From assembly GCF_008000775.2 (NCBI RefSeq), contig NZ_CP042905.2, positions 660,001-692,000 of the forward strand: a stretch of 32,000 bases of DNA, given 5' to 3'. The notes under the pieces are model-generated. The model had not been told where the DNA came from. It did not search any database and saw nothing but the letters and a program-made list of their open reading frames with translations. Of this stretch, positions 1 through 17,879 are shown piece by piece. Position 1 is the stretch's first letter, and each line of letters begins with the position of its first letter. Source of the stretch: Promethearchaeum syntrophicum (lineage in GTDB: Archaea > Asgardarchaeota > Lokiarchaeia > Sigyniarchaeales > Promethearchaeaceae). A program made the translations under genes and the position numbers.

Positions 1-1176
1 GAATGGGATAGTGGTATGAGTATGAGAAAGGCAATTTACAAACTCTACCCTCAAGCTATCCCCTCAACTTATGTACGTGATAAGAAAGTATGTATTACTT
101 GTCAAACGTGTGTTAATTTATGTCCTGTAGGAGCTGTAGATTTCTCAATGAAGAAAACTATAACTACTGTCAAAGTTGGCTCAATAATAGTAGCAACGGG
201 ATATGATGAATACGATCCTTCTGAAATTGAACCATATCATTATGGACAACCGGGTTATGAAGATATAATTACACAATTACAGTTTGAGAGGATGTTAAAT
301 CCTGTTTCGTTAACGGGGTCAAATATTTTACGACCATCTGACGGTAGCGTTCCAAAACGAGTTGTTATGATACAATGTGTGGGGTCGAGAAATGAACAAG
401 TAGGAAACGAATATTGCACTGGTGTTTGTTGCATGTTTGGAAATAAGAACGCGCAAATGATTAAAGAAATCAATCCTGAAACGGATGTAATTATGTGTTA
501 TATCGATATGAGAACTCCTGGAATATATTATGAAGAATTTTATAAAAAATCTCAAGAGATGGGAATAAAATTCATTCGGGGTAGACCTTCAGAAATTGAA
601 AGAAATCCTCTTACTGGTGAATTAACTGTGATCGTTGAAGATACATTATCATTATCACCAATGGAAATACAAGCAGATATGATCGTTCTATCTGCAGCTA
701 TGGTTCCTCCAAGAGGAATTGGTCCACTTGGGTCAAAACTTCAAATTCTACGAATGAAGGAAGGATTTTTCAAAGAATTCCATATTAAAATGAACCCAAC
801 TAAATCTTCAAAAGATGGAATTTTTTTGGCAGGAGCTATTCAGGGTCCAAAGGATATAACACAGTCTGTCGCACAAGCGGGTAGTGCTGCAGCTCTTGCA
901 GCTGCCCCTTTAGTAAGAGGGTATATAGAGAAAGAGATGATAATTCCTTTAATTGATCATGTAAGTTGTACTTTATGTGGAGCATGTAAAACTGTATGCC
1001 CATTCGGAGCCTTAGATATCAAGAATGAAAAATTGGAATTAAATGAAGTTGCTTGCAAAGGATGTGGCTTGTGTCAACCGATTTGCCCAACTGCTGCAAT
1101 CCAATTGATAAATACACGCGAAGATGAACTTTATGATGAAATTGTAGGAATTACAGGAGGAATTACAAATGCTTAG
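1..1176 (+). CDS. hdrA: Heterodisulfide reductase subunit A (HdrA), C-terminal about 390 aa; 5' end lies outside the window
   Basis: Frame 1 is open from base 1 (EWDSG precedes the first Met at 16), so the gene is truncated by the window edge. HdrA hallmarks: CITCQTCVNLCP, VGSIIVATGY, CVGSRNE..YCTGVCC, GIFLAGAIQGPKDITQSVAQAGSAA, and two C-terminal 4Fe-4S motifs CTLCGACKTVCP and CKGCGLCQPICP. Confidence 0.9.
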   Translation, partial: EWDSGMSMRKAIYKLYPQAIPSTYVRDKKVCITCQTCVNLCPVGAVDFSMKKTITTVKVGSIIVATGYDEYDPSEIEPYHYGQPGYEDIITQLQFERMLNPVSLTGSNILRPSDGSVPKRVVMIQCVGSRNEQVGNEYCTGVCCMFGNKNAQMIKEINPETDVIMCYIDMRTPGIYYEEFYKKSQEMGIKFIRGRPSEIERNPLTGELTVIVEDTLSLSPMEIQADMIVLSAAMVPPRGIGPLGSKLQILRMKEGFFKEFHIKMNPTKSSKDGIFLAGAIQGPKDITQSVAQAGSAAALAAAPLVRGYIEKEMIIPLIDHVSCTLCGACKTVCPFGALDIKNEKLELNEVACKGCGLCQPICPTAAIQLINTREDELYDEIVGITGGITNA

Positions 1177-1582
1177 TGAACAAAAAGATGTTCTTGCCTT
1201 TATGTGTGCTGAATGTGGTCAAGGTGCTGCAGTCACTGCAGGTGTTGCTAGATTAAAATATGATACTTCTGTCAAAATCATTCGAGTAAAGTGCAGTGGC
1301 TTAGTAGGACCTATCCAAATAATGGATGCATTAAAAAATGGAGCAGATGCAGTTGCCGTAATTGGTTGCTGCTTTCAGGCTTGTCATTTTTTCAATGGGA
1401 ATTTTCTTTCTATGCATCGAATAAAACTTATGAAAAAGCTCTTTAAGGAAATGGGATACAGCGATCAAATGATTAATCATTATACTGCTCGAGCTGCGGA
1501 AGGTGAAACTGCTACTGGGGATTTTGAAGATGCTATTGAACGTTTGATGAAAGCAGAAGAAGAAGGAGGAACTTTTGCATGA
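1169..1582 (+). CDS. mvhD: MvhD/FlpD-family [2Fe-2S] protein (methyl-viologen-reducing hydrogenase delta-subunit-like)
   Basis: 137 aa with the family Cys pattern FMCAECG ... IRVKCSG ... AVIGCCFQACH. The start overlaps the hdrA stop by 8 nt (ATGCTTAG). GGAGG lies about 9 nt upstream. Confidence 0.85.
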   Translation: MLSEQKDVLAFMCAECGQGAAVTAGVARLKYDTSVKIIRVKCSGLVGPIQIMDALKNGADAVAVIGCCFQACHFFNGNFLSMHRIKLMKKLFKEMGYSDQMINHYTARAAEGETATGDFEDAIERLMKAEEEGGTFA

Positions 1583-2835
1583 AAATTGGGATTTTTCAAT
1601 TAAATGGTTGCAATAAATGTTTCAATGAAACAATTTTATTAGATAAACACATAAAATCTAAAAATGAAATTTATAGAATAAAAAATTCTGAAATTGAATC
1701 ATGGTCTGAGAAAGAGCTTGATTATGCAGTTGTAACGGGGTATATAAAACCAGAAAACCATGAATTTCTTCAAAATTTATCTAAAAATTCAAAAAATATA
1801 GTGGGATATGGAAGTTGTGCAACAACAGGAGGAATTTTCGGGTTAGCTTACCAAAATGGATATAAAATCTCACCAATCGGAAAAATAATCTCAGATGCAG
1901 CAATTGTTGATGGGTGTTTGGGTGAAATTGAAGAATTATCTGAAATTTTACAAGGTAATCCTTTATCAAATGATAGCAATCTATGTAAATCTTGCGCACG
2001 AAAATCAACATGTGAATATCTTGATGAAGTAGTTCGTCAAATTGATCCTCAAGATGATATCGAGAGTTGCTATAATGATTTCGGATATATGTGTACAGGT
2101 TACATTGCCAAAGCATGTAAAGAAATGTGTGTCAACTATGGAACTCCTTGTCGAGGTTGTAAGCCATCAATAGATCGTGCTGGGTTTAGAATGTTAGGAA
2201 TGTTTGGAACCCTCATGGGAAATATAGAAGTGGCCACAGAAGCAACTGGTAAAGGTGGAACAGATAAATTAGCTGATGTAGATGATGATATTACAAGAAG
2301 TATTCCCGATATTACTGGTAATTTCTTTAGATTTAATCTTGCTAATTCAGTTTTACCAATTGGAAGAATTCAATCTAATGGATCTATATTGTCTGACATA
2401 TTTATTGGACGACCGATTGAGGAATTACCCCTTATTTCAGGTTGCATGGGAGGGAACAACTTCATTTCAATCACTTTGGATTTAATTCAAGCCTATGAAA
2501 ATGGTTTAGGTGATGATTTACCAGTGAGTAAAAAGACAACAGAATTACGAAATTCTTTATTATCTTTAGAGAAGGATTTAAATTCGGCTTTAAAAGAAAG
2601 TAATATTGAACAATATGAAACTATCACTAATCAAATTAGGAAACTTGCAGGAAACATGAATCTATCAAATCTATTTTTTGGAGGATTCAAAGTTCCAATT
2701 GAGGGTAGTGATGATTTTGAGGAATACAAGAAAATTATTTTTGAAAATATAGAAGGCGATTATCAAAATGGTCAAGTTAAGTATTCTCTAGATAATCAAG
2801 GATTAGTTACCAAATTTGAAATCTTGGAGGCATAA
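1579..2835 (+). CDS. [NiFe]-hydrogenase small-subunit-like (MvhG/FrhG/NuoB-fold) iron-sulfur protein with an unassigned C-terminal half
   Basis: The N-terminal about 200 aa carry MKIGIFQLNGCNKC, YAVVTGY, GYGSCATTGG and DGCLGE (a proximal-cluster-like Cys pattern). This is followed by Cys-rich CKSCARKSTCEY and CTGYIAKACKEMCVNYGTPCRGCK. The C-terminal about 200 aa have only one Cys and no motif I recognise. ATGA start/stop overlap with mvhD; GGAGG upstream. Confidence 0.7.
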   Translation: MKIGIFQLNGCNKCFNETILLDKHIKSKNEIYRIKNSEIESWSEKELDYAVVTGYIKPENHEFLQNLSKNSKNIVGYGSCATTGGIFGLAYQNGYKISPIGKIISDAAIVDGCLGEIEELSEILQGNPLSNDSNLCKSCARKSTCEYLDEVVRQIDPQDDIESCYNDFGYMCTGYIAKACKEMCVNYGTPCRGCKPSIDRAGFRMLGMFGTLMGNIEVATEATGKGGTDKLADVDDDITRSIPDITGNFFRFNLANSVLPIGRIQSNGSILSDIFIGRPIEELPLISGCMGGNNFISITLDLIQAYENGLGDDLPVSKKTTELRNSLLSLEKDLNSALKESNIEQYETITNQIRKLAGNMNLSNLFFGGFKVPIEGSDDFEEYKKIIFENIEGDYQNGQVKYSLDNQGLVTKFEILEA

Positions 2836-2837
2836 AA

Positions 2838-5297
2838 ATGAGTTTTGAATTATTAAAAATGGAAATTATTGATGCGGGATTATGTCAAGGGTGTGGTCTC
2901 TGTGCTGGGTTATGTAAACATATTGAAATGGTTGATTTAAAACCCGCGATTGTTGATTATTGCATAGTAACAAAAGAAGGATTAGCATGTGGTAAATGTT
3001 ATGATCAATGTCCTCAAATTACCCAAAAACAATTGAAAGTGAAAGAATCTCCAATAGATATTGTAGCTTTGAAAACTGCTGATGAAAAGATCCTTGAAAA
3101 AGCGGCTAGTGGAGGGTTTGTGACAACTTTGAACAAATATCTTCTTGATACTAAGAAAGTCACACAATTAATTGAAGTAAGAGATTTAGGAGGGATTCCA
3201 GAAGGGGAAATCACTACTGATCCTACAAAGGTTCATCAATATGCAGGAGTTGCATACGGTAGATCTGGATCCTTACAAAAATTAGTTGAAGTTTTAGGAG
3301 TAGAACATGGGCAAATTGGTATCGTTGGCGTCCCTTGCGAAATACGTGGAGCAGCAGAGTTAGAAAAACAAAATAAGGCAGATATTTTTAAAATCGGTCT
3401 TTTTTGCAATGCAAATATTAGATCAGGCGAACGAGATGATAATGGAGTTGTTTTTTCCCCATGCCGTCGAATGTGTCCTGCTGGTGTTGACGCATCAGGA
3501 TATGTTAATTACATCCGACAAGGTAAATTTCAAGAGGCTGTAGATCTTATTAGAGACATGAATCCTTTACCTAGTGTATGTGGGCGGGTATGCACTCATG
3601 AATGTGAATATAATTGCACATTAATAGGTACGAATCATCCTATAGCAATACGGGAATTAAAGAAATTTGTCACAGAATGGGAAATGGATTTAGAGAAGAA
3701 AAACTGGAAAAATCCAAAAAAAGAAGAAAATGCCAAAAAAGTTGCAATTATTGGATCTGGTCCCTCTGGGCTTTCATGTGCATATTATTTAGCTAATAAA
3801 GGTTATCGTCCAACAATATTTGAAAAAACAGATAAACTAGGCGGTATGTTAAGGTTTGGGATTCCAAAATTCAGATTACCAGATGAAGTCTTAGATTATG
3901 ATATTGAATTTATTAAGAGTGCTGGTGTAGAATTTAAGCTAAACTCTCCGATAGGTCCAAATTTAACATTTAATGATTTAAAAAAGCAAGGATATGAAGC
4001 GTTTTATGTAAGTTTAGGTCAATACAAACCTAATACTTTACACCTTCCAGGCGAAGATTTAGAGAATGTTCATATGGCTATTGATTTTCTAATGAAAAGA
4101 AAATATCGACATTGGGAAAATTTAGACGAATTCAAAGATAAAACAATTGGAATTGTTGGTGGTGGTCCTGTGGCAGTCGATGTTGCCCAAACAGCTCTTC
4201 GCTTAGGAGCAAAAAAAATAATTCTAATTGATATACAAAATGAGAAAGCTTTAACTATGGTTATTGCAGATATTCCTGAAAATGAGTATAAATTTATGGA
4301 GTACAAATTCAACACTTCAACATCCAAATTAACCCAAGAAGGGGATAAAATTCGGTTTCATAGTCACAAAATTAAAATTGACACAACAGATGGTAAATTC
4401 AAATTGGATAAGATTGAAGGAACAGAATTTACCTTTGATGTAGATAGTGTGGTTATGGCAGTGGGGCAATCTGTTGATTTTACGGAATTTGATAAAGCTC
4501 TCTCCCAAGAAATAAAAAAAGTTCGAGGAAAAATCTTGGTTGATGAATTAACATTTGAAACTAATGTACCTGGAATTTTTGCTGGTGGTGACATAGTAGT
4601 TCGCGGGAAAAACGTAGCCGTAGCAGCAATCGCCCATGGAAGAGAAGCTGCTGAATCAATTAAACGCTATTTAAAAAATCAAGATATGACAAAAGGTAGG
4701 ATGGATAGAACTACAATGTTTTTCCATGGTGCTCTCTCAGCGCCTGAAGATGTTTCTCAAAAACCACCTTTAGAAGTACCTGTGGATGAGACTTGGACAA
4801 ATTTTGAAGAATTTGAAGGGAAATTTACAAAGGAAATGGCAATGAATGAGGCAAATAGATGTTTTACGTGTAATTACTATTGCACTCATTGTCAAGATTT
4901 TGGTGCAATTCACGCCGATTTAACTGCGGGTGATATTGGTTCTGATAAAGATTTTACAACCGTTGTAATTTGGACTAAAAAAGGATATCGTGTGGTACAA
5001 GATATGATTAAAAAAGGTTTAGTGATCGAAGGACCAGTCCAAAAAGAGGCAGTTGATTTAGCAATAGATAAGAAAATGAAGCGAAAATTAATTGAACACG
5101 CTAAAACTCCTCGAGAGAAAATTGAGCAATGGATTAAATTAAATGGATCGGCAACGATACCAAAATTAAGTGAAATCCTCGATATGCCTGTTACAAATAC
5201 TCGTTATAACGCTTTACGATTAGCTCAGGAAAAGAAATTAAGTATGGAAATTATTGATGGAAATCCTGTTTTTTCAATAATGGTAGAAGAAATGTAA
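2838..5297 (+). CDS. Fusion flavoprotein: FrhB/FdhB-like module interrupted by a GltD/NfnB/SudA-like NAD(P)H:FAD oxidoreductase module, plus a C-terminal winged-helix-like tail
   Basis: - FrhB-like N part, aa 1-190: CQGCGLCAGLC, CGKCYDQCP, AASGGFVTTL, IGIVGVPCEIRG, IGLFCNA.
- GltD-like part, aa about 205-615: CPAGVDASGYVNYIRQGKFQEAVDLIRDMNPLPSVCGRVCTHECEYNC; Rossmann motifs KVAIIGSGPSGLSCAYYLA and IGIVGGGPVAVD; GIFAGGD..AIAHGREAA.
- FrhB-like C part, aa about 675-735: EANRCFTCNYYCTHC, HADLTAGDIGSD..TTVVIWTKKG.
- Tail, aa about 755-819: resembles a wHTH.
- Starts 2 nt after the preceding stop; GGAGG upstream. Confidence 0.7.
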   Translation: MSFELLKMEIIDAGLCQGCGLCAGLCKHIEMVDLKPAIVDYCIVTKEGLACGKCYDQCPQITQKQLKVKESPIDIVALKTADEKILEKAASGGFVTTLNKYLLDTKKVTQLIEVRDLGGIPEGEITTDPTKVHQYAGVAYGRSGSLQKLVEVLGVEHGQIGIVGVPCEIRGAAELEKQNKADIFKIGLFCNANIRSGERDDNGVVFSPCRRMCPAGVDASGYVNYIRQGKFQEAVDLIRDMNPLPSVCGRVCTHECEYNCTLIGTNHPIAIRELKKFVTEWEMDLEKKNWKNPKKEENAKKVAIIGSGPSGLSCAYYLANKGYRPTIFEKTDKLGGMLRFGIPKFRLPDEVLDYDIEFIKSAGVEFKLNSPIGPNLTFNDLKKQGYEAFYVSLGQYKPNTLHLPGEDLENVHMAIDFLMKRKYRHWENLDEFKDKTIGIVGGGPVAVDVAQTALRLGAKKIILIDIQNEKALTMVIADIPENEYKFMEYKFNTSTSKLTQEGDKIRFHSHKIKIDTTDGKFKLDKIEGTEFTFDVDSVVMAVGQSVDFTEFDKALSQEIKKVRGKILVDELTFETNVPGIFAGGDIVVRGKNVAVAAIAHGREAAESIKRYLKNQDMTKGRMDRTTMFFHGALSAPEDVSQKPPLEVPVDETWTNFEEFEGKFTKEMAMNEANRCFTCNYYCTHCQDFGAIHADLTAGDIGSDKDFTTVVIWTKKGYRVVQDMIKKGLVIEGPVQKEAVDLAIDKKMKRKLIEHAKTPREKIEQWIKLNGSATIPKLSEILDMPVTNTRYNALRLAQEKKLSMEIIDGNPVFSIMVEEM

Positions 5298-5318
5298 AAT
5301 TATAAGAAGTGAAATAAA

Positions 5319-5555
5319 ATGAACTATGACGCAACATTAGATACACAAGGTTTGGTATGCCCTGTTCCAGCATTAAAAACCAAAAAGCAATTAGGTAAGA
5401 TGAAACCTGGTCAAATCTTAAAGGTCGTAACAGATTATAAACCAGCAAGTGAATCAGTGCCCAGAGATTTAGCTAAAACAAAGCATAAGTTACTTGGTGT
5501 TGAAGAAGATGAAGATGAAGAAATTTGGGAAATTTATTTTGAATGTGTCAAATAA
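5319..5555 (+). CDS. tusA: TusA/SirA-family sulfur-carrier (sulfurtransferase-like) protein
   Basis: 78 aa. LDTQGLVCPVPALKTKKQL contains the conserved CPxP active-site Cys motif. PGQILKVVTD and the overall length fit TusA. Starts 21 nt downstream of the fusion gene. Confidence 0.8.
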   Translation: MNYDATLDTQGLVCPVPALKTKKQLGKMKPGQILKVVTDYKPASESVPRDLAKTKHKLLGVEEDEDEEIWEIYFECVK

Positions 5556-7987: not shown

Positions 7988-9142
7988 ATGAAATTAAATC
8001 CTCAGAAAAACCCCCAAAAAATAGCTTTATTCGGTTTAAATTATGCAGGTAAGACATCAATCCTCAAAACAATTCTGTATGAATTTGAAGCATTTGCCCA
8101 TATTCTCCCTACAACCGGAGTAGATCGCACTGAATTGGATTTTTTTGGAAAATCTCTTCTAATTTGGGATTTTGGTGGTCAATCTGTTTATCGAGATGAT
8201 TATTTAAAGCAACCTATTAGGTATTTTCAACGTATAAAATATTTTTATTATGTTGTTGATGTGCAAGATATTGATAGGATCAAAGAGAGTGCTGAATATT
8301 TTCTCAAACTTATCAAATTAACAACAGAATACAGCGATGATTTTAAAATTTTCATCTTTTTTCATAAGATTGATCCAAATTATAGGGGAAAAACAAAATT
8401 TGAAGAATCGGAGAATCGATTCCTTGTTGAAATTCTTCCAACGATTAATGAATTAAAATTCACTCCTACTTATTTTTATACTTCTATATATAACCCTATT
8501 AGTGTTATTTCAGCTTTTTCACAACCACTATTAGGAAATGAGACAATTTATCAAACCTTAAGCGATGCCCTTGATAGTTTTTGCTTTAATATTGATCTTG
8601 AATTTGGGTTACTTTTTGTTCAAAACTTTATTATTGGTAGTCATTTCTCCGAGCCAGAAATAATCTCAAAAATTAGTAAAAAAATGACAATGTATTTGGA
8701 AGATTTAGATGAATTTGAAGATTGTCCACCCTTTACCGTCGATCCATATAAAATTTTTACAAAAAATTTCGTAATCTCAGTAGGAGACAATAATTTCTAT
8801 TTCCATTTTTCTGTAGGGATTAATATTCTAAACATTCCCGATGATATGGATGAAATTTTTGATGCTATGGATGAATACACATATAATTTGCGGAAAATAT
8901 TAGAAAATTCGGAATTAATTCGAACAGGTGAACTCAGAAATGAAGAAATTTTGAGTGGAATTAATGAATTGGAGACTAGATATATAATAACTGAAGAAGA
9001 AGAGCTCGAAGGTTTGGAACAAGAAGATAAAATCAAGAATATCCAAAGAAATTTGGAATTAGAGATAATGGAAAACAAGGTAATGGAAGAGGATGACCAA
9101 GAGAATATTGAAGAAGTTGAAGAAAATGATTTCAAAGATTGA
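7988..9142 (+). CDS. Rag/Gtr-like small GTPase with a roadblock-like C-terminal domain and an acidic tail
   Basis: G1 GLNYAGKTS; switch I PTTGVD; G3 WDFGGQ; G4 is HKID (HKxD as in Rag/Gtr, not NKxD); G5 region YTSIYNPISVISAFSQ resembles Rag TSIWD..AWS. The following segment (LLFVQNFIIGSHF) resembles the start of the Rag C-terminal roadblock domain. 384 aa fits a GTPase plus CTD architecture. Confidence 0.7.
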   Translation: MKLNPQKNPQKIALFGLNYAGKTSILKTILYEFEAFAHILPTTGVDRTELDFFGKSLLIWDFGGQSVYRDDYLKQPIRYFQRIKYFYYVVDVQDIDRIKESAEYFLKLIKLTTEYSDDFKIFIFFHKIDPNYRGKTKFEESENRFLVEILPTINELKFTPTYFYTSIYNPISVISAFSQPLLGNETIYQTLSDALDSFCFNIDLEFGLLFVQNFIIGSHFSEPEIISKISKKMTMYLEDLDEFEDCPPFTVDPYKIFTKNFVISVGDNNFYFHFSVGINILNIPDDMDEIFDAMDEYTYNLRKILENSELIRTGELRNEEILSGINELETRYIITEEEELEGLEQEDKIKNIQRNLELEIMENKVMEEDDQENIEEVEENDFKD

Positions 9143-9199
9143 TGAAAATCATTTGAAGAATGAAAAAAATTAATAACTCTTTGAGTGAAATATTTTATT

Positions 9200-10621
9200 A
9201 TGATATATGTTGCTTTTGATGAAGCTCACAAAGAACGTGGAAACTTATCTACAAATTTTAAATCACTTAGCAGTATGTTAAATGAAAATGAGTTTACTTG
9301 TTATCCTTATGCGGAATTCCCCATTGCAAAAAATAATTTAGCCCCATTCGATATTTTAGTTCTTGGATGCCCCGATAATGCGAAGTTCAGTAAGCTAGAA
9401 ATCGATACGATTAAAAATTGGGTTTTGACTGAGGGAGGCGGATTACTTATGTTAAGCCACGCAGGTGGAGATAAAGGGCGACGTTCAAATTTAAGTGAAC
9501 TTTCAGAGCAATTTGGCATAATATTTGAAAATGATCAAGTTCTTGATAATGTTAATAACATGGGTGTAGAAAATCTTCCCCTTATTACTAATTTTGGGTT
9601 TCCACATCCAATTACTGAAGAGATTTCTTCAATATGTTATCGTGCAGGATGCAGTTTAACCATTTCTAATATGTCTGTAACTCCTGTAGTATCATCAAGC
9701 GCAGATTCTGAACCCGTAGAGAGTCCATTAATATTATCAACAGAAATGGGCGAAGGTCGCATTGTAGCTATAGGGTCCTATGAAATGTTTCGAGATAAAA
9801 TATCTGGAGGATTTAATGAAGGATCTCATGCTCAATTGATATTAAATATCTTTAATTGGCTTAAAACCTCAAAAAGAGAAAAAATTCGATCTGAAGGAGG
9901 GGCAGCAACGACTCAAAATGGTTATCAAGAAGGGGTAACCACTGAAGAGACAAAATTACCTCTCGAAAATATTGACCAAAATCAAGTTTCGCAATATGCA
10001 AATATTCCTTTGAAGAGTTATCAATCCGATGTAAAAATTGTTTCAAATGTAGAATTAGTAAAAGCATTTGAAGGTATAGTAACTGATTTTTATTCATTTA
10101 AGGATAGAATGCTGAAAGAATTTGAAAATCTTCAAACCAATCTTTCTAATCTTGTGGGAGCAGTCATTGCATCAGAAGAAGATTTTGCTAATGTATCTCA
10201 TCCAACCCCCCCTGAAGATTCCTTGAATTTAACTCCTCCTCCAAGTACAAGTACCAACAATAACAAACATGATGAAAATGATGAAGAAGTAAAAATCTCA
10301 ACTCCTACTGATTATTCTTCAATAAATGAAAAATCTATTGAACTTGGAATAGAAAAAGAAAAATTTCAAGCAGAAAAACAATCCAAAATAGAGGCAAATC
10401 TTAAATTAAAAAAAACAAAAGAAGAGGTTGATGCAGAGATAGAGAGTCTTAGGAACAAATTGAATTCAATTAAAAATTTAACATCTTTTGTCGAAAAGAA
10501 ATTTTCATCAGGAAAATTATCGAAGAAAAACTATGACAAACAAACGAAAAAACTTTCAACTGATCTTAAAGAAACTCAAAATAAAATTGATGAATTAACC
10601 CAAGAATTAAAAGATATGTAA
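9200..10621 (+). CDS. GIFT-like (IFT52/GldG/DUF4350-type, GATase1-like fold) domain protein with a Pro/Ser/Thr-rich linker and a C-terminal coiled coil
   Basis: - ORF is open from GTG 9185; the first ATG is at 9200.
- aa about 7-228: FDEAH..., FDILVLGCPDNAKFSKLEIDTIKNWVLTEGGGLLMLSHAGGD, LSEQFGIIFENDQVL, GRIVAIGSYEMFRD, IFNWLKT. This pattern fits the GIFT/ABC_transp_aux/DUF4350 family.
- aa about 335-360: Pro-rich (PTPPEDSLNLTPPPSTS).
- aa about 385-478: heptad-rich K/E coiled coil. Confidence 0.5.
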   Translation: MIYVAFDEAHKERGNLSTNFKSLSSMLNENEFTCYPYAEFPIAKNNLAPFDILVLGCPDNAKFSKLEIDTIKNWVLTEGGGLLMLSHAGGDKGRRSNLSELSEQFGIIFENDQVLDNVNNMGVENLPLITNFGFPHPITEEISSICYRAGCSLTISNMSVTPVVSSSADSEPVESPLILSTEMGEGRIVAIGSYEMFRDKISGGFNEGSHAQLILNIFNWLKTSKREKIRSEGGAATTQNGYQEGVTTEETKLPLENIDQNQVSQYANIPLKSYQSDVKIVSNVELVKAFEGIVTDFYSFKDRMLKEFENLQTNLSNLVGAVIASEEDFANVSHPTPPEDSLNLTPPPSTSTNNNKHDENDEEVKISTPTDYSSINEKSIELGIEKEKFQAEKQSKIEANLKLKKTKEEVDAEIESLRNKLNSIKNLTSFVEKKFSSGKLSKKNYDKQTKKLSTDLKETQNKIDELTQELKDM

Positions 10622-10895: not shown

Positions 10896-11981
10896 TTACT
10901 TTCTTAATAAATTTTTGAGATTTTTGCTTACAAAATCTCCCATTCCATTTGTAGTTAATGTTTTTAATTTTCCTTGATTTAAATCATTTTTAGGAAGGAT
11001 ATCTATGGTTCTCCCTTGTTCTAAAGATAATTCTACTGCATTTTCAATTAAATCTCCATAAAATTTTTCTCCGAATGATTCCTCTATCATTAATTTAACA
11101 GAAAGAATCGTTCCAATAGGATTAGCTATATCTTTTCCTGCAATATCTGGTGCAGAACCATGAATGGGTTCATACATTGAAACTTTTCCAGGATTTATAT
11201 TACCGCTTGCAGCCATTCCAAGAGACCCAATTAAATAAGCAGCTTCATCACTAATGATATCTCCGAACATATTTTCGGTAACAACGGTTTGAACTGAATA
11301 TGGTCTTCTTATTAACCATTGGCAAAATGCATCAATATAGAAATTTGTTTGTTTTATATCTTGATATTTTTTTCCAATCTCCAAATAAATTTCACGCCAA
11401 AATTGGCTGCATTCTAATAAATTCGCTTTATCAACACTAATTATCTCTGAATTACCTTTTTTCTTAGCATATTCAAATGCATATTTAATTATTCGCTCAA
11501 CCGAGTTCCGTGTATAAATCATTTTATTGATTACCTTGTTATCACTCACTTCAGTCCCAATTTTTGCGTACAAACCTTCTGTATTTTCCCGAATTATTGT
11601 CATATCAATTCCGTTTTGGATATATTCCTCTTTTAGTGGGCATTTATCTCGTAAAGATTCATAGAGTTTTATTGGTCGCAGATTAACATACAAATCTAGT
11701 CCTTGTCTAAGTTTTGAAATAGCAGATTCTGCAGCACCTAACGGTAAATTTGGCAATCCTATTGCACCAAATAAAATTGCATCGCATTTTTTCATCTGAT
11801 CAAATGATTTTTGTGGAAGATTTGTTCCAGTATCGATTAAGACTTGTCCTCCTAATGGGGTTTCTACAAATTCAAATTGATAATCAGAATATTTTTGAAG
11901 GGTTTTCATAATTTTTATCCCTTCCGCAACTACTTCAGGACCGATTCCATCCCCACGAGCGAGTGCAATTTTTTTTTTCAT
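10896..11981 (-). CDS. 3-isopropylmalate / homoisocitrate / isocitrate dehydrogenase-family enzyme (beta-decarboxylating dehydrogenase)
   Basis: KIALARGDGIGPEVV, IIRENTEGLY, NMFGDIISDEAAYLIGSLGMAASGNI and YEPIHGSAPDIAGKDIANPIGTILS are family signatures. Substrate specificity cannot be called from motifs alone, and no leuCD neighbours are present. Confidence 0.85.
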   Translation of the reverse strand: MKKKIALARGDGIGPEVVAEGIKIMKTLQKYSDYQFEFVETPLGGQVLIDTGTNLPQKSFDQMKKCDAILFGAIGLPNLPLGAAESAISKLRQGLDLYVNLRPIKLYESLRDKCPLKEEYIQNGIDMTIIRENTEGLYAKIGTEVSDNKVINKMIYTRNSVERIIKYAFEYAKKKGNSEIISVDKANLLECSQFWREIYLEIGKKYQDIKQTNFYIDAFCQWLIRRPYSVQTVVTENMFGDIISDEAAYLIGSLGMAASGNINPGKVSMYEPIHGSAPDIAGKDIANPIGTILSVKLMIEESFGEKFYGDLIENAVELSLEQGRTIDILPKNDLNQGKLKTLTTNGMGDFVSKNLKNLLRK

Positions 11982-12295: not shown

Positions 12296-14473
12296 ATGAA
12301 AAATTTAAAAAAAAAATCAATTGCAATTCTCGCTTTATTCATGATATCCACATTTGCAGGCTCAATGGTTTCCAATGCGACGGCTGAAAAGAGTTATGTT
12401 TTACCCGATGACCCAGACGTCTTAAATGCTGGTCTTGCACAAATGTTTGGGATGTTCCGTGAATTTGGAGCATCAGGAGAATTGTTAGGCGAGGTTTTGA
12501 TGATGATGTTTGAAAATTTCGAAACTATGAACGCCACACAAGAAATTGATGGGGTATACGTTTTAAATGCCTCCGTCATAAAAGCACAAGAATCGGGAAA
12601 CTTCACATATGGTGAAGCACAAACCGAAGAATATACTCCTTGGGGAGTCTATAGTCTAGAAAACGCTACTCTTACAGAAGATCAAGATGAATATCCATAT
12701 TTCCTTTTAAATGAAACTGGAACTATTGAATATAATAAAACTGAAGGTGTTTCTATTACATTTATCATTTGGGATGATGATGGCACTTTTATCGATGCAC
12801 TTGATAAATTAATAAGCACTTTCAAAGAATTTAAAATGATTTCAGAAGATGATGTGCCCGATGAAGTTGCAGAAGAAGCTGCCTTAAGAGCAGTTATTTC
12901 AGCTTTAACATACTTCTTTATCCATGTTAACGATATTATCACGGGAGATGAAGTCATAGTTCTCAACACAATCGCTTTTACTAATTATGTTGCAGATTTT
13001 GATGGAAGCATCGATGCAAATTGGTATGTTACTGAAGAAGGAGTTAGAACACATTCTCGTTTACTTATTGATGCATTACCTACCTACGATGAAGATTACA
13101 CTCAAATTGCAGATTATTATCGTGATGAATTCATGCAATATCTCCTTGATGAGAATAATTTTGCTGACGGTCAAAAAACTCAAAATTACACATCATTTAG
13201 TTTCGATGTTATTGAAATTTGGTTAAAAGAGTTTCAAATATCAATTGATTCACAAGCGATTTTAGGCGCATTAGCTGGAGAAGAAGGAGCGGAATTTTTC
13301 GATGATAAGACCGCCACAGATATTTTCCAAGAATTAAAACTTGAATTTTATGTGTTTACTCATCATTTCCAGAATTGGTATTTATTTGATGATAATAAAT
13401 TTGATAAAGATTACTCTAATGCCACTACTGAGATTCAAGATCAAGCAGAAGCGGCAGTTGGAAACGGTGTTCCTGATGTTCTTTTTGAAGAAATAGGTAC
13501 TTTTGAAGGTGAACCAGTACATGCGATTACAGACGCTGAAGTTGTTGATTATATTCTGTTCAGAGGCGCAGATTCTTGGGAATTCAAAGAACCCGTTTAT
13601 GATGCTGAAAATAACAAAATGGAATGGGGTATTCGTGCAGAGAATTTAGGATTTAGGGTAATTCCTATGGGATTAAACGATGATGAAATCTCATTAACTG
13701 ATGCTCCTGTTGAATATATGGAATTCATGGAATTGGGATTTTCATTTGAACCTGAAAATAAAAAAGTAGTTGAAACCGATGATTATATAAACGCACAAGG
13801 TCAAGAGACAATGGGATCTGCCAAAGTCAAACTTATTCAAAGCTTTGGACAATGGGACTTAGATACAGATGGTAAACCATTTACTCCACATTTAAAGAAT
13901 ACAAGTTTAGATTTAACTACAGTATATATGAGCACAATTTTCCACTTTAAACTTGCAATTGAAAATAAACAGATTGTTGATGAAGGTGAAACTCCCTCAG
14001 CTGGATTACTTAATGAAACAAATTATGACAGAGACACTCATCACATTAGAGTTGGAGATATCAACCAAGAATTGCCTTTAGCAGATATCGACATTGCAGG
14101 ACCAGAATATAACCAATCAGGCGCTAACACAGGAGATTATCCAGCAGAGACAACTATCATTCCAACGGTTTATGCAGAATTTGAAGGTCAAAGTAGTGAG
14201 ACTTATGAACAAGAAGATACTTCTATAGGTCAAATTAACGCAACCATAAATATTGAGTTTTCAACGTTAATCTATGCTGTTTCCTATCCTACATTTGGAA
14301 TGGGAAATGAAAATTATACAACTGGAGACGAAATAATTCATGACCCAACATTCAGTGTGTTCATAACCACAATAAATCCAGGTGTTATTGCAATTATTTT
14401 GGTTATTGGTGCAGTCGGATTAGCAGGAATTGCTGCTGTTTTGATCACCAAAAAGAAAAATGCTCAATTTTAG
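12296..14473 (+). CDS. Secreted, highly acidic, sequon-rich surface protein with a C-terminal membrane anchor
   Basis: N-terminal signal-peptide-like MKNLKKKSIAILALFMISTFAGSMVSNA. C-terminal PGVIAIILVIGAVGLAGIAAVLITKKK (TM helix plus basic tail). By eye, 14 N-X-S/T sequons. Strong D/E bias. Confidence 0.65.
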   Translation: MKNLKKKSIAILALFMISTFAGSMVSNATAEKSYVLPDDPDVLNAGLAQMFGMFREFGASGELLGEVLMMMFENFETMNATQEIDGVYVLNASVIKAQESGNFTYGEAQTEEYTPWGVYSLENATLTEDQDEYPYFLLNETGTIEYNKTEGVSITFIIWDDDGTFIDALDKLISTFKEFKMISEDDVPDEVAEEAALRAVISALTYFFIHVNDIITGDEVIVLNTIAFTNYVADFDGSIDANWYVTEEGVRTHSRLLIDALPTYDEDYTQIADYYRDEFMQYLLDENNFADGQKTQNYTSFSFDVIEIWLKEFQISIDSQAILGALAGEEGAEFFDDKTATDIFQELKLEFYVFTHHFQNWYLFDDNKFDKDYSNATTEIQDQAEAAVGNGVPDVLFEEIGTFEGEPVHAITDAEVVDYILFRGADSWEFKEPVYDAENNKMEWGIRAENLGFRVIPMGLNDDEISLTDAPVEYMEFMELGFSFEPENKKVVETDDYINAQGQETMGSAKVKLIQSFGQWDLDTDGKPFTPHLKNTSLDLTTVYMSTIFHFKLAIENKQIVDEGETPSAGLLNETNYDRDTHHIRVGDINQELPLADIDIAGPEYNQSGANTGDYPAETTIIPTVYAEFEGQSSETYEQEDTSIGQINATINIEFSTLIYAVSYPTFGMGNENYTTGDEIIHDPTFSVFITTINPGVIAIILVIGAVGLAGIAAVLITKKKNAQF

Positions 14474-14490
14474 TAAGAAATAGAATTGAG

Positions 14491-14527
14491 TTTTTTTCCC
14501 ATTTTTTTTTATTTTCATTTTTTTTTT
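14491..14527 (+). terminator. Oligo-T archaeal-type terminator region
   Basis: T7, T9, T4 and T10 runs within 55 nt downstream of the stop at 14473. Confidence 0.45.
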
Positions 14528-14628
14528 ACTCCTATTTTAATTATGAATACTTTCTCTTCTTTCAAGCACAAAACAATTATAGGAATAAAAATACTAATGT
14601 ATAATTAAATAAGGTGGGATGATAAAAA

Positions 14629-15675
14629 ATGAGTTTTTGGAATGAAGTAGATGGATTAATTGAAAAGGGAAAAACATCTAAGCAAATTAAAGTAACTGCA
14701 GATGATTTAATTGAACTTCGAAATAAAATGAAAGATTTACAGTTATCATTAAGTACCATAGAAAAAAATCTTCAAGTAGAAACAGAAAAGGTCAAAATTT
14801 ATCAACGAAATTTTGCAGATGAACAAGAAAAGGTTAATATGCTTCAACGTAACATATCAGAAAAGGTCTCGATAATTACTCAAAGAGAAGGAGAAATCAC
14901 GCAAATTCAGCAACATTTAAATGAAAAAAATACTATTACTACACAACTTCAAGCAGAGTTAGACAATTTAAAGGCGGATATAGGTAAACGAGATCTTGAG
15001 ATTAAAAATGCTTTCACAACTGTAACTCAAGCAGAGGAAATGCTTGGAAAAAGAGATCAACAAATAGAGGATTTTAAATCTTTAATCAATCAAAAAAATC
15101 TTGAGATCGATGAAATGAAGAGAAATTTAAATGAAGGACAACAAAATGCGGCTTCTCTTAATGGAAAAGAACAAGAATTAGAAAGATTGAGAAAAGAAAT
15201 TCAAAGTTCCCAATCGCAAGACTCTAAAGTTCCTGGATTACAATTAAAAATTCAAACTTTGCAAGCTAAGATTCAAGAATTAGAAAGTAATTCAGTCACC
15301 AGAGCAGACTTTGATTCGATTTTCAACCAAAATAAAGAGTTAGAGGGAAGATTTAATTCACTTAACTTCAAGGTTGGGGCATTAACAAATGAAAATGAGC
15401 AATTGAAAGGGGAATTAGCGGAGAAAATGAAAAAAATAAATTCTTTGACAGAACCACATGCTGTAATGACTCCTTCTTTAGGAAAATCCAACAATCCTTC
15501 TACAATTACATCTACAACAACAGATGATGCATTTGGAACTGCTAGAATTGTTTGCCCCCATTGTGGTTCTTCTAAATTAACTGTTATTGAAGATAAAAGT
15601 AGAATAATTTCCTATATCCCTGCACCAGTATATGCTAAGAAGAATGTTTGTTCTCAATGTGGTTTTGAGTTTTAA
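14629..15675 (+). CDS. Long coiled-coil protein with a C-terminal zinc ribbon
   Basis: About 270 aa of heptad-like Q/E/K/L-rich sequence, then an S/T-rich linker, then CPHCGS...(24 aa)...CSQCG. AGGTGG lies upstream of the ATG. Confidence 0.6.
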   Translation: MSFWNEVDGLIEKGKTSKQIKVTADDLIELRNKMKDLQLSLSTIEKNLQVETEKVKIYQRNFADEQEKVNMLQRNISEKVSIITQREGEITQIQQHLNEKNTITTQLQAELDNLKADIGKRDLEIKNAFTTVTQAEEMLGKRDQQIEDFKSLINQKNLEIDEMKRNLNEGQQNAASLNGKEQELERLRKEIQSSQSQDSKVPGLQLKIQTLQAKIQELESNSVTRADFDSIFNQNKELEGRFNSLNFKVGALTNENEQLKGELAEKMKKINSLTEPHAVMTPSLGKSNNPSTITSTTTDDAFGTARIVCPHCGSSKLTVIEDKSRIISYIPAPVYAKKNVCSQCGFEF

Positions 15676-15762: not shown

Positions 15763-16668
15763 TTACTCAAATCCGAATTCTTTTAGAAGTTTATTAGGTT
15801 TTACTTGGTGATATTTTAAACCAATATCATTCATTGAAGCGCCAAAAGCTAAAGCCATTAATTCGGTTACATAAAGAACAGGGATTTTTACAATCATTTC
15901 AAAAGCTTTTTTCATTGATCGTTGACCTACTTCGAGTTGTTGATAACATGAAGGACAATTAACAGCAATAATCTGGGCACCTGAATCTATGATACTTTGA
16001 TATTTCTTTTTCATGAGATTATTTGATGCATCCTCATCATTTCTTGCAAGGGCTGATGTACAACACAGATCTGCTTCTTCATGATCAATATGAGTAGCTC
16101 CAAGTGCTTCCAAAATTTCTGCTGGAAATCTTGGATTCATCGCATCGTCTACCTGCATCATTTCAGAAGGTCTTGAGTAATGACAACCAACATGGGTTGT
16201 TATTTTTAATCCCGTTAGCGGTTTAACTACTAGTGCTTTTATCGCCTCTAAACCGATATCTTCATGGAGTAATTCAATGAAATGTTTAACTTGTGCGGTT
16301 CCGGAATAGGTTTTTCCAACAGACTCTAAACGCTTCTTTACAATTTCCAAATCTTCTTTCTTATGCTTTAACTCATAATTGACCGCTTTCAGTGTTTCAG
16401 TACATCCATTACACAAACTTACTATCGGGTGATTGGATTTTTCAGATAATGCTAGATTACGCGCTCCTAAAGTAAGCCATGTTTGATAATCTGTACTTTG
16501 GACACCTACAGGATCTGGACAGCAACCAAATGAATTATCATGAAGAGTGAATCCTAATTTTTCAAAAACAAATCTTGCACTTTTTTCAAGGAAAGGAATT
16601 CGGTTCTGGATAGTACAACCTGCAAATAAATCATAATCTTTTATATCTGTTTTAGGATCTGAAGCCAT
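15763..16668 (-). CDS. hdrB: Heterodisulfide reductase subunit B (two CCG domains)
   Basis: Two CCG-type Cys patterns: FAGC..FGCCPDP..LCNGC and HVGC..DLCCTSA..NCPSCYQQL. Starts 1 nt after the hdrC stop. Confidence 0.9.
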   Translation of the reverse strand: MASDPKTDIKDYDLFAGCTIQNRIPFLEKSARFVFEKLGFTLHDNSFGCCPDPVGVQSTDYQTWLTLGARNLALSEKSNHPIVSLCNGCTETLKAVNYELKHKKEDLEIVKKRLESVGKTYSGTAQVKHFIELLHEDIGLEAIKALVVKPLTGLKITTHVGCHYSRPSEMMQVDDAMNPRFPAEILEALGATHIDHEEADLCCTSALARNDEDASNNLMKKKYQSIIDSGAQIIAVNCPSCYQQLEVGQRSMKKAFEMIVKIPVLYVTELMALAFGASMNDIGLKYHQVKPNKLLKEFGFE

Positions 16669-16669
16669 G

Positions 16670-17212
16670 TTATTTCTCCTCCTTTGTTTTTTCTAATTCT
16701 TCGATTTCTTTCAAAATATTTTCTACAGGTGTCATTCCCATCAATTTTTTTATTTCATCCACATCGGTTGAAGGTGATTTAGGTAATCCAAGCTGTTCGC
16801 GGCGTTTTTCAATTACTGGTTGTGATGGAACTGCTTTTCCAAATAAATAAACTTGATTTGTCTCGCTAGTATAAGATTTTGGGATATTATGATAACGTGC
16901 AGAAGCATTTTTTATTCTCAAGAAGATTTCATGCAGATTAACTCCTTCCGGGCAAGCCTCTTGACATAACTCGCACATAGTACATTGCCAAACATTAGGG
17001 GTTAGATCAACAATCAGTCTCTTCTCATAACCAAAGTTTGACAACAATATAATTGATCGAGGATTAAATTTTCCTTCAGTTTCAAGAGCAACAGGGCATA
17101 TGGTTGAGCAAGTAGAGCAATTATAACAAAGATTTAATGATGTCGCTAATTCAGAATCTGTAAATTCATCATGAAGCGATAGAACTGGATCTATGTTTTC
17201 AATTTTTTCCAT
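16670..17212 (-). CDS. hdrC: Heterodisulfide reductase subunit C (2x[4Fe-4S])
   Basis: CYNCSTCSTICP and CTMCELCQEACP motifs. The size and the position immediately upstream of hdrB also fit. Confidence 0.9.
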   Translation of the reverse strand: MEKIENIDPVLSLHDEFTDSELATSLNLCYNCSTCSTICPVALETEGKFNPRSIILLSNFGYEKRLIVDLTPNVWQCTMCELCQEACPEGVNLHEIFLRIKNASARYHNIPKSYTSETNQVYLFGKAVPSQPVIEKRREQLGLPKSPSTDVDEIKKLMGMTPVENILKEIEELEKTKEEK

Positions 17213-17324: not shown

Positions 17325-17879
17325 TTAAATTAAGCTTTTTGCCAGATAATTGAAAAATTCTTCAACCCCAAAACCATTCTGAGAAGAAGTTTCAAAATAA
17401 GAATCTGCATTAAATTTCTCTTTGAATTCATCTATTTGGTCTGATGAAATTATTGATGGATCTTCCGTTACTAAATCTTTCTTTGTTCCAAGTAAGAAGA
17501 ATTTTGTTTTTGAATCACCCCAAACTCCACCTTCTTTTAATAATCCTATCCAATTCTTTATCCGATAAAGTGTGGCAACCCTCGATAAATCAAATGCTAA
17601 TATTATTCCTTCCGCACCTTGTATATATTCGTTCAGAATGAATCTGAATCGTTCTTGACCTGCAAAATCCCAAAGCAATAAAGTCATTTGGTATTTATCT
17701 GCATTATCCAATGTAATATCAACTTTTTTAATAAAAAAATCTGTTCCTATCGTCATTTTGGTAGAATCTACAAAAACTTTGTTGACATAACGATGTAGGA
17801 GTGTAGTTTTCCCAACTCCTCCTTCCCCTAAAATAATAATTTTTCTTTTAATTTTTTTGATATTTGAATCGTTTAACAT
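17325..17879 (-). CDS. Rab/Ras-like small GTPase
   Basis: G1 GEGGVGKTT; switch I TIGTDF; G3 WDFAGQERF; G4 GTKKDL; G5 ETSS. No C-terminal Cys prenylation motif. Confidence 0.85.
   Translation of the reverse strand: MLNDSNIKKIKRKIIILGEGGVGKTTLLHRYVNKVFVDSTKMTIGTDFFIKKVDITLDNADKYQMTLLLWDFAGQERFRFILNEYIQGAEGIILAFDLSRVATLYRIKNWIGLLKEGGVWGDSKTKFFLLGTKKDLVTEDPSIISSDQIDEFKEKFNADSYFETSSQNGFGVEEFFNYLAKSLI

Follow-up and report, generated by a model that had tools for sequence, protein, structure and literature searches.

The methanogen complex of heterodisulfide reductase (Hdr) with the Mvh hydrogenase consists of full-length HdrA, HdrB, and HdrC, the adaptor MvhD, the three-cluster small subunit MvhG, and the catalytic [NiFe] large subunit MvhA. 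The stretch of DNA analyzed here, hereafter called the window, comprises 32,000 nucleotides of Promethearchaeum syntrophicum (contig NZ_CP042905.2, positions 660,001 to 692,000), with MK-D1 as the source strain, and begins inside an operon that resembles this system. Its five plus-strand genes in the window (DSAG12_01147–01151) include hdrA, mvhD, and an mvhG-like gene, mvhG′, which are contiguous and overlapping, and the complement of full-length HdrA, HdrB, HdrC, MvhD, and a three-cluster MvhG is shared with the methanogen complex. The locus differs from that complex in having no catalytic MvhA, a putative relic of which is fused to MvhG′, in the FrhB/GltD-type flavoprotein gene (frhB′) that follows, in its setting among sulfur-carrier genes, and in a host that lacks methanogenesis. 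Because the host lacks methanogenesis, the methanogen substrate CoM-S-S-CoB (the heterodisulfide of coenzymes M and B) is unlikely to be used. We propose that the locus encodes an H2-independent, NADH- or F420H2-fed bifurcating Hdr that would act on TusA/DsrE-bound sulfur, a reading whose chances we consider evenly balanced; we hold with the same divided confidence that the complex would have descended from a methanogen-type Mvh–Hdr and would no longer use H2.

The MvhG′ protein and its C-terminal extension

The MvhG-like protein of the window is identical to DSAG12_01149 of MK-D1 and was matched by the Oxidored_q6 (6e-10) and VhuG (3e-15) families. In total, 354 homologs were found at E ≤ 1e-3; the best 120 of these were all 401 to 423 aa long and 52 to 78% identical, and all came from Asgard metagenome-assembled genomes (MAGs) or genomes, including that of Lokiarchaeum ossiferum. 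Thirteen cysteines were invariant in an alignment of 28 sequences (C11, C14, C80, C113, C136, C139, C145, C164, C172, C180, C184, C191, and C194). When compared with solved small subunits, the family profile matched VhuG (9sw2_E, 5e-22) and MvhG (5odc_E, 3e-21) over the entire ~300-aa MvhG/VhuG, from the N-terminus to the extreme C-terminus, and 12 of the 13 invariant cysteines corresponded to cluster ligands. The ligand sets of the proximal, medial, and distal clusters that characterize a small subunit are all present. A Foldseek search with the full-length MvhG′ model returned small subunits only, with 5odc_E as the top match. The initial annotation had pictured this protein as an iron-sulfur wire, and the retention of its cluster ligands is in keeping with that picture.

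The remainder of the protein is a C-terminal extension (residues ~262–418) that is Cys-free in the consensus; its motifs GRxIEELPxI, AGNMNLSN, and GGF are among the best kept in the entire protein. A Pfam search with the extension alone gave no meaningful family. In the PDB, the best matches of the extension profile were all [NiFe] large subunits (FrhA 6qgr_A at an E value of 0.031, then 9sfi_g, 7t2r_D, 4ci0_A, and 3zfs_A), and these matches shared one register, in which extension residues 16–75 correspond to large-subunit residues 42–101. A search of 1.84 billion representative proteins with the same profile returned 24 matches at E ≤ 1e-3, 21 of which were family members or fragments. The three non-family matches (E values of 3e-5, 7e-5, and 3e-4) all carry the Pfam family NiFeSe_Hases (PF00374) and were aligned at the L1 region; one of them, 426 aa long, is a large subunit that is intact and carries both RICGAC and DPCLPC. 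Comparison of the extension profile with this 426-aa protein by hhalign gave a probability of 96% and an E value of 4e-9, and under relaxed settings the alignment remained collinear up to roughly large-subunit residue 170, bridging a deletion of ~45 residues. A tblastn search of the whole window with the 426-aa protein produced a single match, at 2368–2571 in the 3′ part of mvhG′.

At the position of the L1 nickel ligands, MK-D1 has ISGCMGG and the family consensus is ISGLLGG. In divergent members of the MvhG′ family, the sequence here is IASRVFGVRS or IASRIYGSRS, forms that plainly lie between these and the IASRICGACS found in the real large subunit. The DPCxxC region is wholly missing from the extension, which has no nickel-ligand cysteine. 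In the full-length MvhG′ model, the extension has predicted local distance difference test (pLDDT) scores of 80 to 97. A resemblance between EGxYxNGxVxYxxDxxG in the extension and the EAPRGxLxHxYxxDxxG hairpin of large subunits was also considered; it was not significant, and no claim is drawn from it. From the profile alignments, we consider it very probable that the extension and the N-terminal region of [NiFe] large subunits share ancestry. Read in this way, MvhG′ is an MvhG to which a putative MvhA relic of ~155 aa is fused, about one-third of the size of MvhA and without nickel ligands, and the predicted fusion preserves the D-G-A order of the genes.

The initial annotation had reported no [NiFe] large-subunit signature in the window, and a scan of all six frames of the 32 kb for R.CG.C and DPC..C motifs likewise found none. 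Nor did any open reading frame (ORF) within ±10 kb carry a large-subunit motif in any of 76 related loci. The locus has neither the RxCGxC nor the DPCxxC motif of a [NiFe] hydrogenase from group 3c; the relic has LGG or MGG at the RICGxC position. Since the large-subunit motifs were tested for and are missing, the locus fails, as judged from its predicted proteins, as a hydrogenase. An mvhA 5′ of base 1, which would have overturned the initial annotation, was rejected on the upstream contig, where the position is taken by hdrB and hdrC; none lies elsewhere in the transcription unit. The statement that a flavoprotein holds the slot expected for mvhA stands in part: an FrhB/GltD gene does follow, but MvhG′ itself bears the ~155-aa candidate large-subunit relic.

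These results bear on the alternative that the system is still H2 dependent, with MvhG′ recruiting the sole genomic MvhA (DSAG12_03951) in trans and the locus supplying HdrA and MvhD. As listed by Imachi et al. (PMC7015854), MK-D1 has only one true [NiFe] hydrogenase cluster, DSAG12_03951–03954 (MvhA-HdrB-HdrC-MvhG), which includes neither HdrA nor MvhD, and the authors speak of one “MvhADG–HdrABC”; the proximal-cluster ligands of MvhG′, for their part, are invariant. The genomic MvhA nevertheless adjoins an MvhG of its own, the genome has other Hdr clusters with MvhD, and the absence of a large subunit extends to all 76 loci. The homology of the conserved relic, moreover, suggests that it may occupy the place of the large subunit on MvhG′. 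Recruitment of MvhA in trans appears very improbable to us. As listed, DSAG12_03951–03954 would itself encode a hydrogenase connected straight to HdrBC, in the absence of HdrA and MvhD.

The operon and its flavoprotein

The features of the operon within the window are as follows.

1–1176, plus strand: 3′ part of hdrA (DSAG12_01147), the last 391 of 674 residues, with the frame open from base 1
1156–1160, plus strand: GGAGG before mvhD, read from the sequence, 8 nt 5′ of the ATG at 1169
1169–1582, plus strand: mvhD (DSAG12_01148), 137 aa, [2Fe-2S] adaptor to HdrA (FlpD 5e-31, VhuD 4e-26)
1565–1569, plus strand: GGAGG before mvhG′, read from the sequence, 9 nt 5′ of the ATG at 1579
1579–2835, plus strand: mvhG′, whole gene (DSAG12_01149), 418 aa
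1579–2361, plus strand: mvhG′ residues 1–261, MvhG/VhuG small-subunit part with ligand sets for three Fe-S clusters
2362–2835, plus strand: mvhG′ residues 262–418, extension read as a large-subunit relic
2826–2830, plus strand: GGAGG before the flavoprotein gene, read from the sequence, 7 nt 5′ of the ATG at 2838
2838–5297, plus strand: frhB′ flavoprotein, whole gene, 819 aa
2838–3434, plus strand: frhB′ N-terminal half, residues 1–199, 2x[4Fe-4S] ferredoxin domain and FrhB_N
3435–4829, plus strand: inserted GltD/NfnB-type module, residues ~200–664, with Fe-S dicluster, FAD site, and NAD(H) site
4830–5297, plus strand: frhB′ C-terminal half, residues 665–819, with CxxCxxxCxxC, FrhB_C, and a conserved helical tail of ~60 aa
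5319–5555, plus strand: tusA (DSAG12_01151), 78 aa, sulfur carrier, last gene of the unit (Pfam TusA 2e-21)

The open reading frames bore out the positions, and profile searches the families, that the initial annotation had given for the five co-oriented genes (hdrA, mvhD, mvhG-like, frhB/gltD, and tusA), and the junctions and the three GGAGG sites read as it had described them. The overlap between hdrA and mvhD is 8 nt long (ATGCTTAG, 1169–1176) and that between mvhD and mvhG′ is 4 nt long (ATGA, 1579–1582), followed by gaps of 2 nt between mvhG′ and frhB′ (2836–2837) and 21 nt between frhB′ and tusA (5298–5318). The two overlaps would imply translational coupling. An A/T-rich run and then a convergent gene lie 3′ of tusA. 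On the other side, the operon is truncated by the edge of the window: on a 20-kb contig of the same strain, it has seven genes, hdrC-hdrB-hdrA-mvhD-mvhG′-frhB′-tusA. The plus-strand genes 5′ of base 1 are tusA, dsrE, dsrE(F), dsrH, a DsrE_2-family gene (dsrE2), an AsnC-type regulator, hdrC (203 aa), hdrB (302 aa), and hdrA, whose full product has 674 aa. The five genes first described are thus present, but the real unit has seven and is tied to tusA-dsrEFH-dsrE2 upstream.

Two further Hdr-type gene sets lie in the vicinity, making three inside ~25 kb. A second, divergent hdrCBA set is located farther upstream of the window (20-kb contig L001, 2–2642). Within the window, an orphan pair on the minus strand (15763–17212) encodes an HdrB-like protein (301 aa, CCG domains) and an HdrC-like protein (180 aa, 2x[4Fe-4S]); it has no adjoining hdrA or mvhD and lies ~10 kb away from the operon.

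The operon is expressed in MK-D1, at a level typical among the listed metabolic genes, because the RNA data of Imachi et al. 2020 (PMC7015854) give 265 to 318 reads per kilobase per million (RPKM) for hdrC to frhB′ and 182 for tusA, compared with 346 for MvhA.

To survey the locus, one genome per species was used, which yielded 72 loci, every one of them belonging to Promethearchaeota or to an unnamed archaeal MAG; ORFs were labeled by BLASTP with the MK-D1 proteins, and 70 loci were non-redundant. A survey of this kind had been called for by the initial annotation, and the same gene order recurred in these 70 loci. Since they represent separate species, the recurrence indicates that the arrangement did not arise by chance. 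An arrangement of 12 to 13 genes is syntenic in ~70 Promethearchaeota species. Among loci with at least 7.5 kb of upstream sequence, mvhD, hdrA, hdrB, hdrC, dsrE2, dsrF, dsrE, and tusA were present in 38/38 and dsrH in 37/38, and tusA was found 3′ of the flavoprotein gene in 61 of the 63 loci with a complete gene after mvhG′.

That gene carries the GltD insertion in 58/63 loci. It encodes a plain FrhB of 380 to 399 aa in three, is split in one, and in one other, that of Candidatus Harpocratesius repetitus (L065 in the survey, 11283–11711), is reduced to the 142-aa N-terminal ferredoxin part of FrhB, followed directly by tusA. With the Harpocratesius gene, the slot has three states, the other two being plain FrhB and the GltD-containing FrhB. 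Two metagenome contigs with divergent members of the family have the order dsrE…hdrCBA-mvhD-mvhG′ followed by a plain frhB, with tusA kept in one of them. Because these deeply divergent members have a plain frhB after mvhG′, plain FrhB looks like the older state and the GltD insertion like a lokiarchaeial elaboration.

Several loci carry additional genes. In all three plain-FrhB loci (L003, 7952–9379; L053, 3563–4966; L059, 12768–14174), an extra hdrC–hdrB pair directly follows tusA. This pair is related to the extra hdrC–hdrB of MK-D1, which is accompanied by hdrA and lies divergently upstream, and a second HdrBC may serve the same system. In a Promethearchaeum sp. MAG (L005, 8106–10549), a second frhB::gltD-like copy, split into ORFs of 145 aa and 639 aa, stands directly after tusA and may be a tandem duplicate or a pseudogene. 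In some MAGs (L043, 14397–15139; L047, 17326–18432; L051, 14380–15466), a dsrE–dsrF(–dsrH) set recurs in inverted orientation a few kilobases downstream of the operon.

The 819-aa flavoprotein of MK-D1 was matched by the Pfam families FrhB_N (PF04422, 2e-8), Fer4_20, Pyr_redox_2 (2e-27), and FrhB_C (PF04432, 2e-17), and residues 5–194 matched Pfam FrhB_FdhB_N and FpoF. Its two ends align with the plain FrhB (380 aa) found at this slot in a related MAG (L003): identity is 51% between residues 1–199 and residues 2–199 of that protein, and 39% between residues 665–817 and its residues 226–380. A 465-residue insert takes the place of a FrhB loop of ~26 residues and is missing from the plain FrhB orthologs. 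The initial annotation had called this gene an frhB::gltD fusion. Both families are indeed present, but as predicted from the alignment the GltD module sits inside the FrhB loop, an insertion rather than an end-to-end fusion.

The FrhB halves were closest in the PDB to 8rja_E (2e-24) and Fsr (7np8_A, 3e-20); the F420-reductase subunit that belongs to the Fwd/CODH complexes in an ethane oxidizer (8rja_E, 8riu_B; PMC11493965) is the closest solved homolog. The insert matched PRK12771 (5e-116) and, in the PDB, 9bov_A (1e-85), NfnA 9n5u_A (4e-83), NfnB 4ylf_B (2e-65), and NfnI-L 5jca_L (4e-61). Among 61 distinct orthologs, eight N-terminal ferredoxin-type cysteines, C167 and C190, the C-terminal cluster cysteines C675, C678, C682, and C685 expected of the FrhB_N/FrhB_C family, and the dicluster cysteines C209, C213, C248, C252, C256, and C260 were all invariant. 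The altered dicluster positions of MK-D1 (window 3435–3620, consensus C-SP-CC-xx-CP) raise the possibility that, in this strain, one [4Fe-4S] cluster of the inserted module is changed or missing. The FAD and dinucleotide Rossmann folds are both recognizable, with conserved GsGPAGL and GGGpVAVD motifs. The view that the flavoprotein is a misannotated [FeFe] hydrogenase, a possibility mentioned by Greening et al., is unlikely, as no H-cluster domain occurs among its Pfam matches.

The initial annotation had typed the protein as an NAD(P)H/F420-type flavoprotein; its FrhB-family and GltD-type character stands, and the NADPH alternative looks the less likely one. The four best solved relatives carry Y-R-R, the NADPH-type motif that binds the 2′-phosphate, behind the second strand of the nucleotide fold; MK-D1 reads D-I-Q there, and Asp466 is kept in at least 90% of the 61 orthologs. 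By the usual rule, an acidic residue at such a position excludes the 2′-phosphate. The replacement of YRR by D-I-Q, taken together with this rule, suggests that the site of the inserted module is NADH rather than NADPH type.

The slot states also bear on the alternative that F420 is the true partner, in which case the complex would be an F420H2-dependent bifurcating Hdr or a confurcating ferredoxin/thiol-to-F420 reductase and GltD would add an NAD(H):F420 link in Lokiarchaeia. Plain FrhB in 3/63 complete loci and in the divergent members means that FrhB alone must suffice there as the input or output site. The closest solved homologs, as noted above, are F420-reductase modules and Fsr, F420 biosynthesis genes have been reported in Lokiarchaeota, and models of HdrA–FrhB confurcation have been published for anaerobic methanotrophic archaea (ANME) and Korarchaeia. 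The insert of 58/63 loci, however, is a complete and strongly conserved FAD/NAD(H) module, and the 142-aa FrhB gene of Harpocratesius implies that the FrhB flavin site is dispensable in that lineage. No cof genes for F420 synthesis were seen in the MK-D1 gene listing, whose coverage ends at DSAG12_01998, and no weight is placed on this result. We judge F420 as the true partner to be unlikely, although the idea deserves a hearing, and retain NADH as the donor where the insert is present.

Hdr core, sulfur carriers, and the proposed reaction

The part of hdrA in the window was assigned to NCBIfam HdrA2/HdrA (3e-123). Residues 23–667 of the full-length HdrA (674 aa) align with residues 2–649 of 5odc_A (7e-194), and the N-terminal cluster domain, the FAD/thioredoxin-reductase domain, and the inserted and C-terminal ferredoxin domains are all present. 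The short sHdrA 6tjr_A aligns to residues 338–589 only, and HdrA is predicted to be of the long methanogen type and not the ~350-aa sHdrA type. From end to end, HdrB matches the methanogen HdrB 5odc_B (9e-92); its 10 invariant cysteines form two CCG sets for non-cubane [4Fe-4S] clusters (C13, C45, C46, C82, C85, C158, C198, C199, C236, and C239); HdrC has eight invariant cysteines, the complement of 2x[4Fe-4S]. MvhD has the features of a [2Fe-2S] adaptor of its type, with six cysteines invariant among 69 orthologs. Among the carriers, the CPxP cysteine C14 of TusA (DSAG12_01151) is invariant among 66 orthologs, and C16 of the upstream TusA, C78 of DsrE, which is of the DsrE/TusD Cys78 type, and C99 of DsrE2 are each invariant across orthologs, so the carrier cysteines of the TusA and DsrE families are in place. 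C40 of DsrF occurs in 98% of orthologs, and no conserved cysteine was seen in DsrH.

Genes for tusA and dsrE beside hdr genes are the hallmark of sHdr loci, as known from work of the Dahl group. The neighborhood described here shares that hallmark, and it is possible to read the system as oxidative and sHdr-like, with sulfane sulfur on TusA/DsrE oxidized at HdrB and electrons passed through MvhD, MvhG′, and FrhB′ to NAD+. The invariant carrier cysteines and an electron chain that is reversible in principle are compatible with this direction. The HdrA of the locus, however, is of the 674-aa methanogen type instead of the ~350-aa sHdrA type, MvhD is present where sHdr systems have none, no gene for a lipoate-binding protein (GCV_H/LbpA) appears in the Pfam tables of four loci (L001–L004), and the host is a strictly anaerobic fermenter of amino acids. 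An oxidative role is in our estimation improbable.

The linkage of TusA, DsrEFH, and DsrE2 to the operon was not considered in the initial annotation and points to the likely oxidant of a reductive, bifurcating Hdr. Authors on Asgard archaea have called the substrate of the Asgard Hdr an “unidentified heterodisulfide,” and in another Asgard archaeon, Nerearchaeum, Hdr has been proposed to reduce TusA/DsrE persulfide, with H2 as the donor (10.1101/2025.07.22.663070). For the complex of the window, NADH would be oxidized at the inserted flavin and, in lineages with plain FrhB, F420H2 at the FrhB flavin. From there, the Fe-S clusters of FrhB′ and MvhG′ would relay the electrons to MvhD, whose [2Fe-2S] cluster would hand them to the bifurcating FAD of HdrA. 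One branch would reduce ferredoxin, and the other would lead by way of HdrC to HdrB, at whose two non-cubane clusters a disulfide or persulfide presented by TusA/DsrE carriers would be reduced in place of CoM-S-S-CoB. Overall, electrons may flow in the direction of bifurcation or of confurcation. The relic probably caps or stabilizes the face of MvhG′ near the proximal cluster or else docks FrhB′.

A number of points weigh against this scheme. Complex formation has been deduced from synteny and gene overlap only. In solved Fdh–Hdr complexes, a FrhB-family module feeds MvhD without any MvhG, and MvhG′ could be a side branch. NADH (−320 mV) drives the reduction of ferredoxin only with an oxidant near −140 mV, and the values commonly given for persulfide or polysulfide couples are closer to −200 to −270 mV. 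The likeness of HdrB to methanogen HdrB could mean that the substrate is a small-molecule heterodisulfide and not protein-bound sulfur. Within the inserted module, NADH specificity is read from a single motif, and two dicluster positions that are cysteine in 82 to 84% of the 61 orthologs, C206 and C210, are F206 and R210 in MK-D1, which keeps six of eight. When the MvhG′ extension was modeled in isolation, with mediocre quality, Foldseek gave no match.

The question of complex formation also underlies the alternative that there is no single complex. MvhG′ and FrhB′ would then form a separate Nfn-like NADH:ferredoxin or NADH:F420 oxidoreductase, the sulfur relay would serve tRNA thiolation or Fe-S assembly, and the genes would merely be co-regulated neighbors. 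The insert is most like NfnB and NfnA, which bifurcate alone, and the KEGG labels of the genes upstream of the operon are those of tRNA 2-thiouridine TusA/D/C/B. This arrangement fits poorly with the 8-nt and 4-nt overlaps that join hdrA, mvhD, and mvhG′, with MvhD as a dedicated adaptor of HdrA, and with a synteny that is invariant over ~70 species and persists across deep divergence of the family. We give the separate enzymes a slim chance and continue with the single bifurcating Hdr.

A more far-reaching and decidedly tentative proposal is that the locus represents a “fossil hydrogenase.” Early in Asgard evolution, a soluble group-3 [NiFe] module may have been converted into the H2-independent input arm of a bifurcating Hdr, its large subunit reduced to a nickel-free stub and the donor site provided by FrhB and later, in Lokiarchaeia, by FrhB with an NADH module. 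The heterodisulfide in question may then be a TusA/DsrE-bound persulfide or a carrier-protein disulfide, which would couple the disposal of fermentative NADH to sulfur reduction. Hdr clusters of Asgard archaea are routinely taken as evidence of hydrogen metabolism, on which syntrophy models of eukaryogenesis are based. If the locus is read correctly, a cluster that looks like Mvh (hdrABC, mvhD, and mvhG) can be hydrogenase-free, and annotation without a check for the large subunit may mislead. The strict linkage to TusA, DsrEFH, and DsrE2 in ~70 species also offers a candidate Hdr substrate for organisms that have neither coenzyme M nor coenzyme B. The locus is present in two cultured hosts, P. 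syntrophicum and L. ossiferum, and is expressed in the former.

The rest of the window is Asgard-like, with Ras, Gtr1/RagA, an IFT52-GIFT domain protein, STT3, and an archaeal ribosomal protein cluster. Three genes of the eukaryotic-signature type flank the operon. One encodes a GTPase of the Gtr1/RagA family that bears a long acidic tail (7988–9142), another a coiled-coil protein with an IFT52 GIFT domain (9185–10621), and the third, on the minus strand, a small GTPase of the Ras family (17325–17879). Two plus-strand ORFs of 725 aa and 348 aa (12296–15675) matched no Pfam family at E ≤ 1e-3.

Comparison with described systems

The composition of the locus, which the initial annotation did not know to have been described, is in fact already in print: Supplementary Table 4 of Imachi et al. 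2020 (PMC7015854) includes DSAG12_01145–01150 under “Heterodisulfide reductase complexes,” with no function or mechanism assigned by the authors. The prior literature found on the locus consists of this listing, the proposal of TusA/DsrE–Hdr coupling in Nerearchaeum, and the frhB-hdrA-mvhD ideas for Korarchaeia and ANME. No earlier description of the relic, the insertion architecture, or the phylum-wide synteny was found in a literature search that was itself incomplete.

The inserted module matches the full length of NfnB/NfnSL-L, NfnA of NfnABC, StnC, and GltD (4e-83 to 4e-61), with the folds and the dicluster included. It differs from these proteins in being inserted in a FrhB fold, in the change from YRR to D-I-Q, and, in MK-D1, in having only six of the eight dicluster cysteines. 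With sHdr–TusA–DsrE3–LbpA systems, the locus shares tusA- and dsrE-family genes beside hdrCBA and the conserved carrier cysteines. Its HdrA is the long, bifurcating type, however, MvhD is present, and no gene for a lipoate-binding protein was seen in the four loci examined (L001–L004), so that none of the distinguishing marks of sHdr (short sHdrA, an LbpA gene, and no MvhD) applies.

In complex I (NuoB/NuoD), Fpo, Mbx, and Ehr, the [NiFe] subunit pair has been re-used for electron transfer after the loss of the nickel-ligand cysteines. Those systems are membrane-bound members of group 4 with a full-size homolog of the large subunit, whereas the candidate described here belongs to the soluble group 3, and its putative large subunit is about one-third of full size and fused to the small subunit.

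The closest functional parallels are found among the complexes built on HdrA and MvhD. FdhAB–MvhD–HdrABC(–Fmd) (7BKB, 8RVU) and the frhB/fdhB–hdrA–mvhD clusters of ANME and Korarchaeia likewise place a FrhB-family input or output module on an MvhD–HdrA core; they have no MvhG-like wire, relic, or inserted NAD(H) module, and their donors are formate or F420. FlxABCD–HdrABC, known from sulfate reducers and syntrophs (Ramos et al. 2015), follows a shared logic, in which an NADH-oxidizing flavoprotein, Fe-S subunits, and an MvhD-like adaptor feed HdrABC and the proposed oxidant is sulfur bound to a protein (DsrC). FlxA is FNR-like, and FlxABCD contains no small-subunit homolog, unlike the locus described here; Flox-type clusters are listed elsewhere in the MK-D1 genome (DSAG12_03717–03726 and 03218–03223) by Imachi et al.

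The locus would thus work like the HdrABC–MvhD complexes with swappable inputs, which include Mvh, Fdh, FlxABCD, MetFV, and the F420-dependent HdrA2B2C2. Within one conserved frame, the slot after mvhG′ holds plain FrhB, FrhB with a GltD module, or a truncated FrhB, and the relic and the domain-in-domain flavoprotein illustrate the swapping of input modules in bifurcating complexes. As such, the locus appears to offer a clean example of how a hydrogenase module can become an H2-independent wire.

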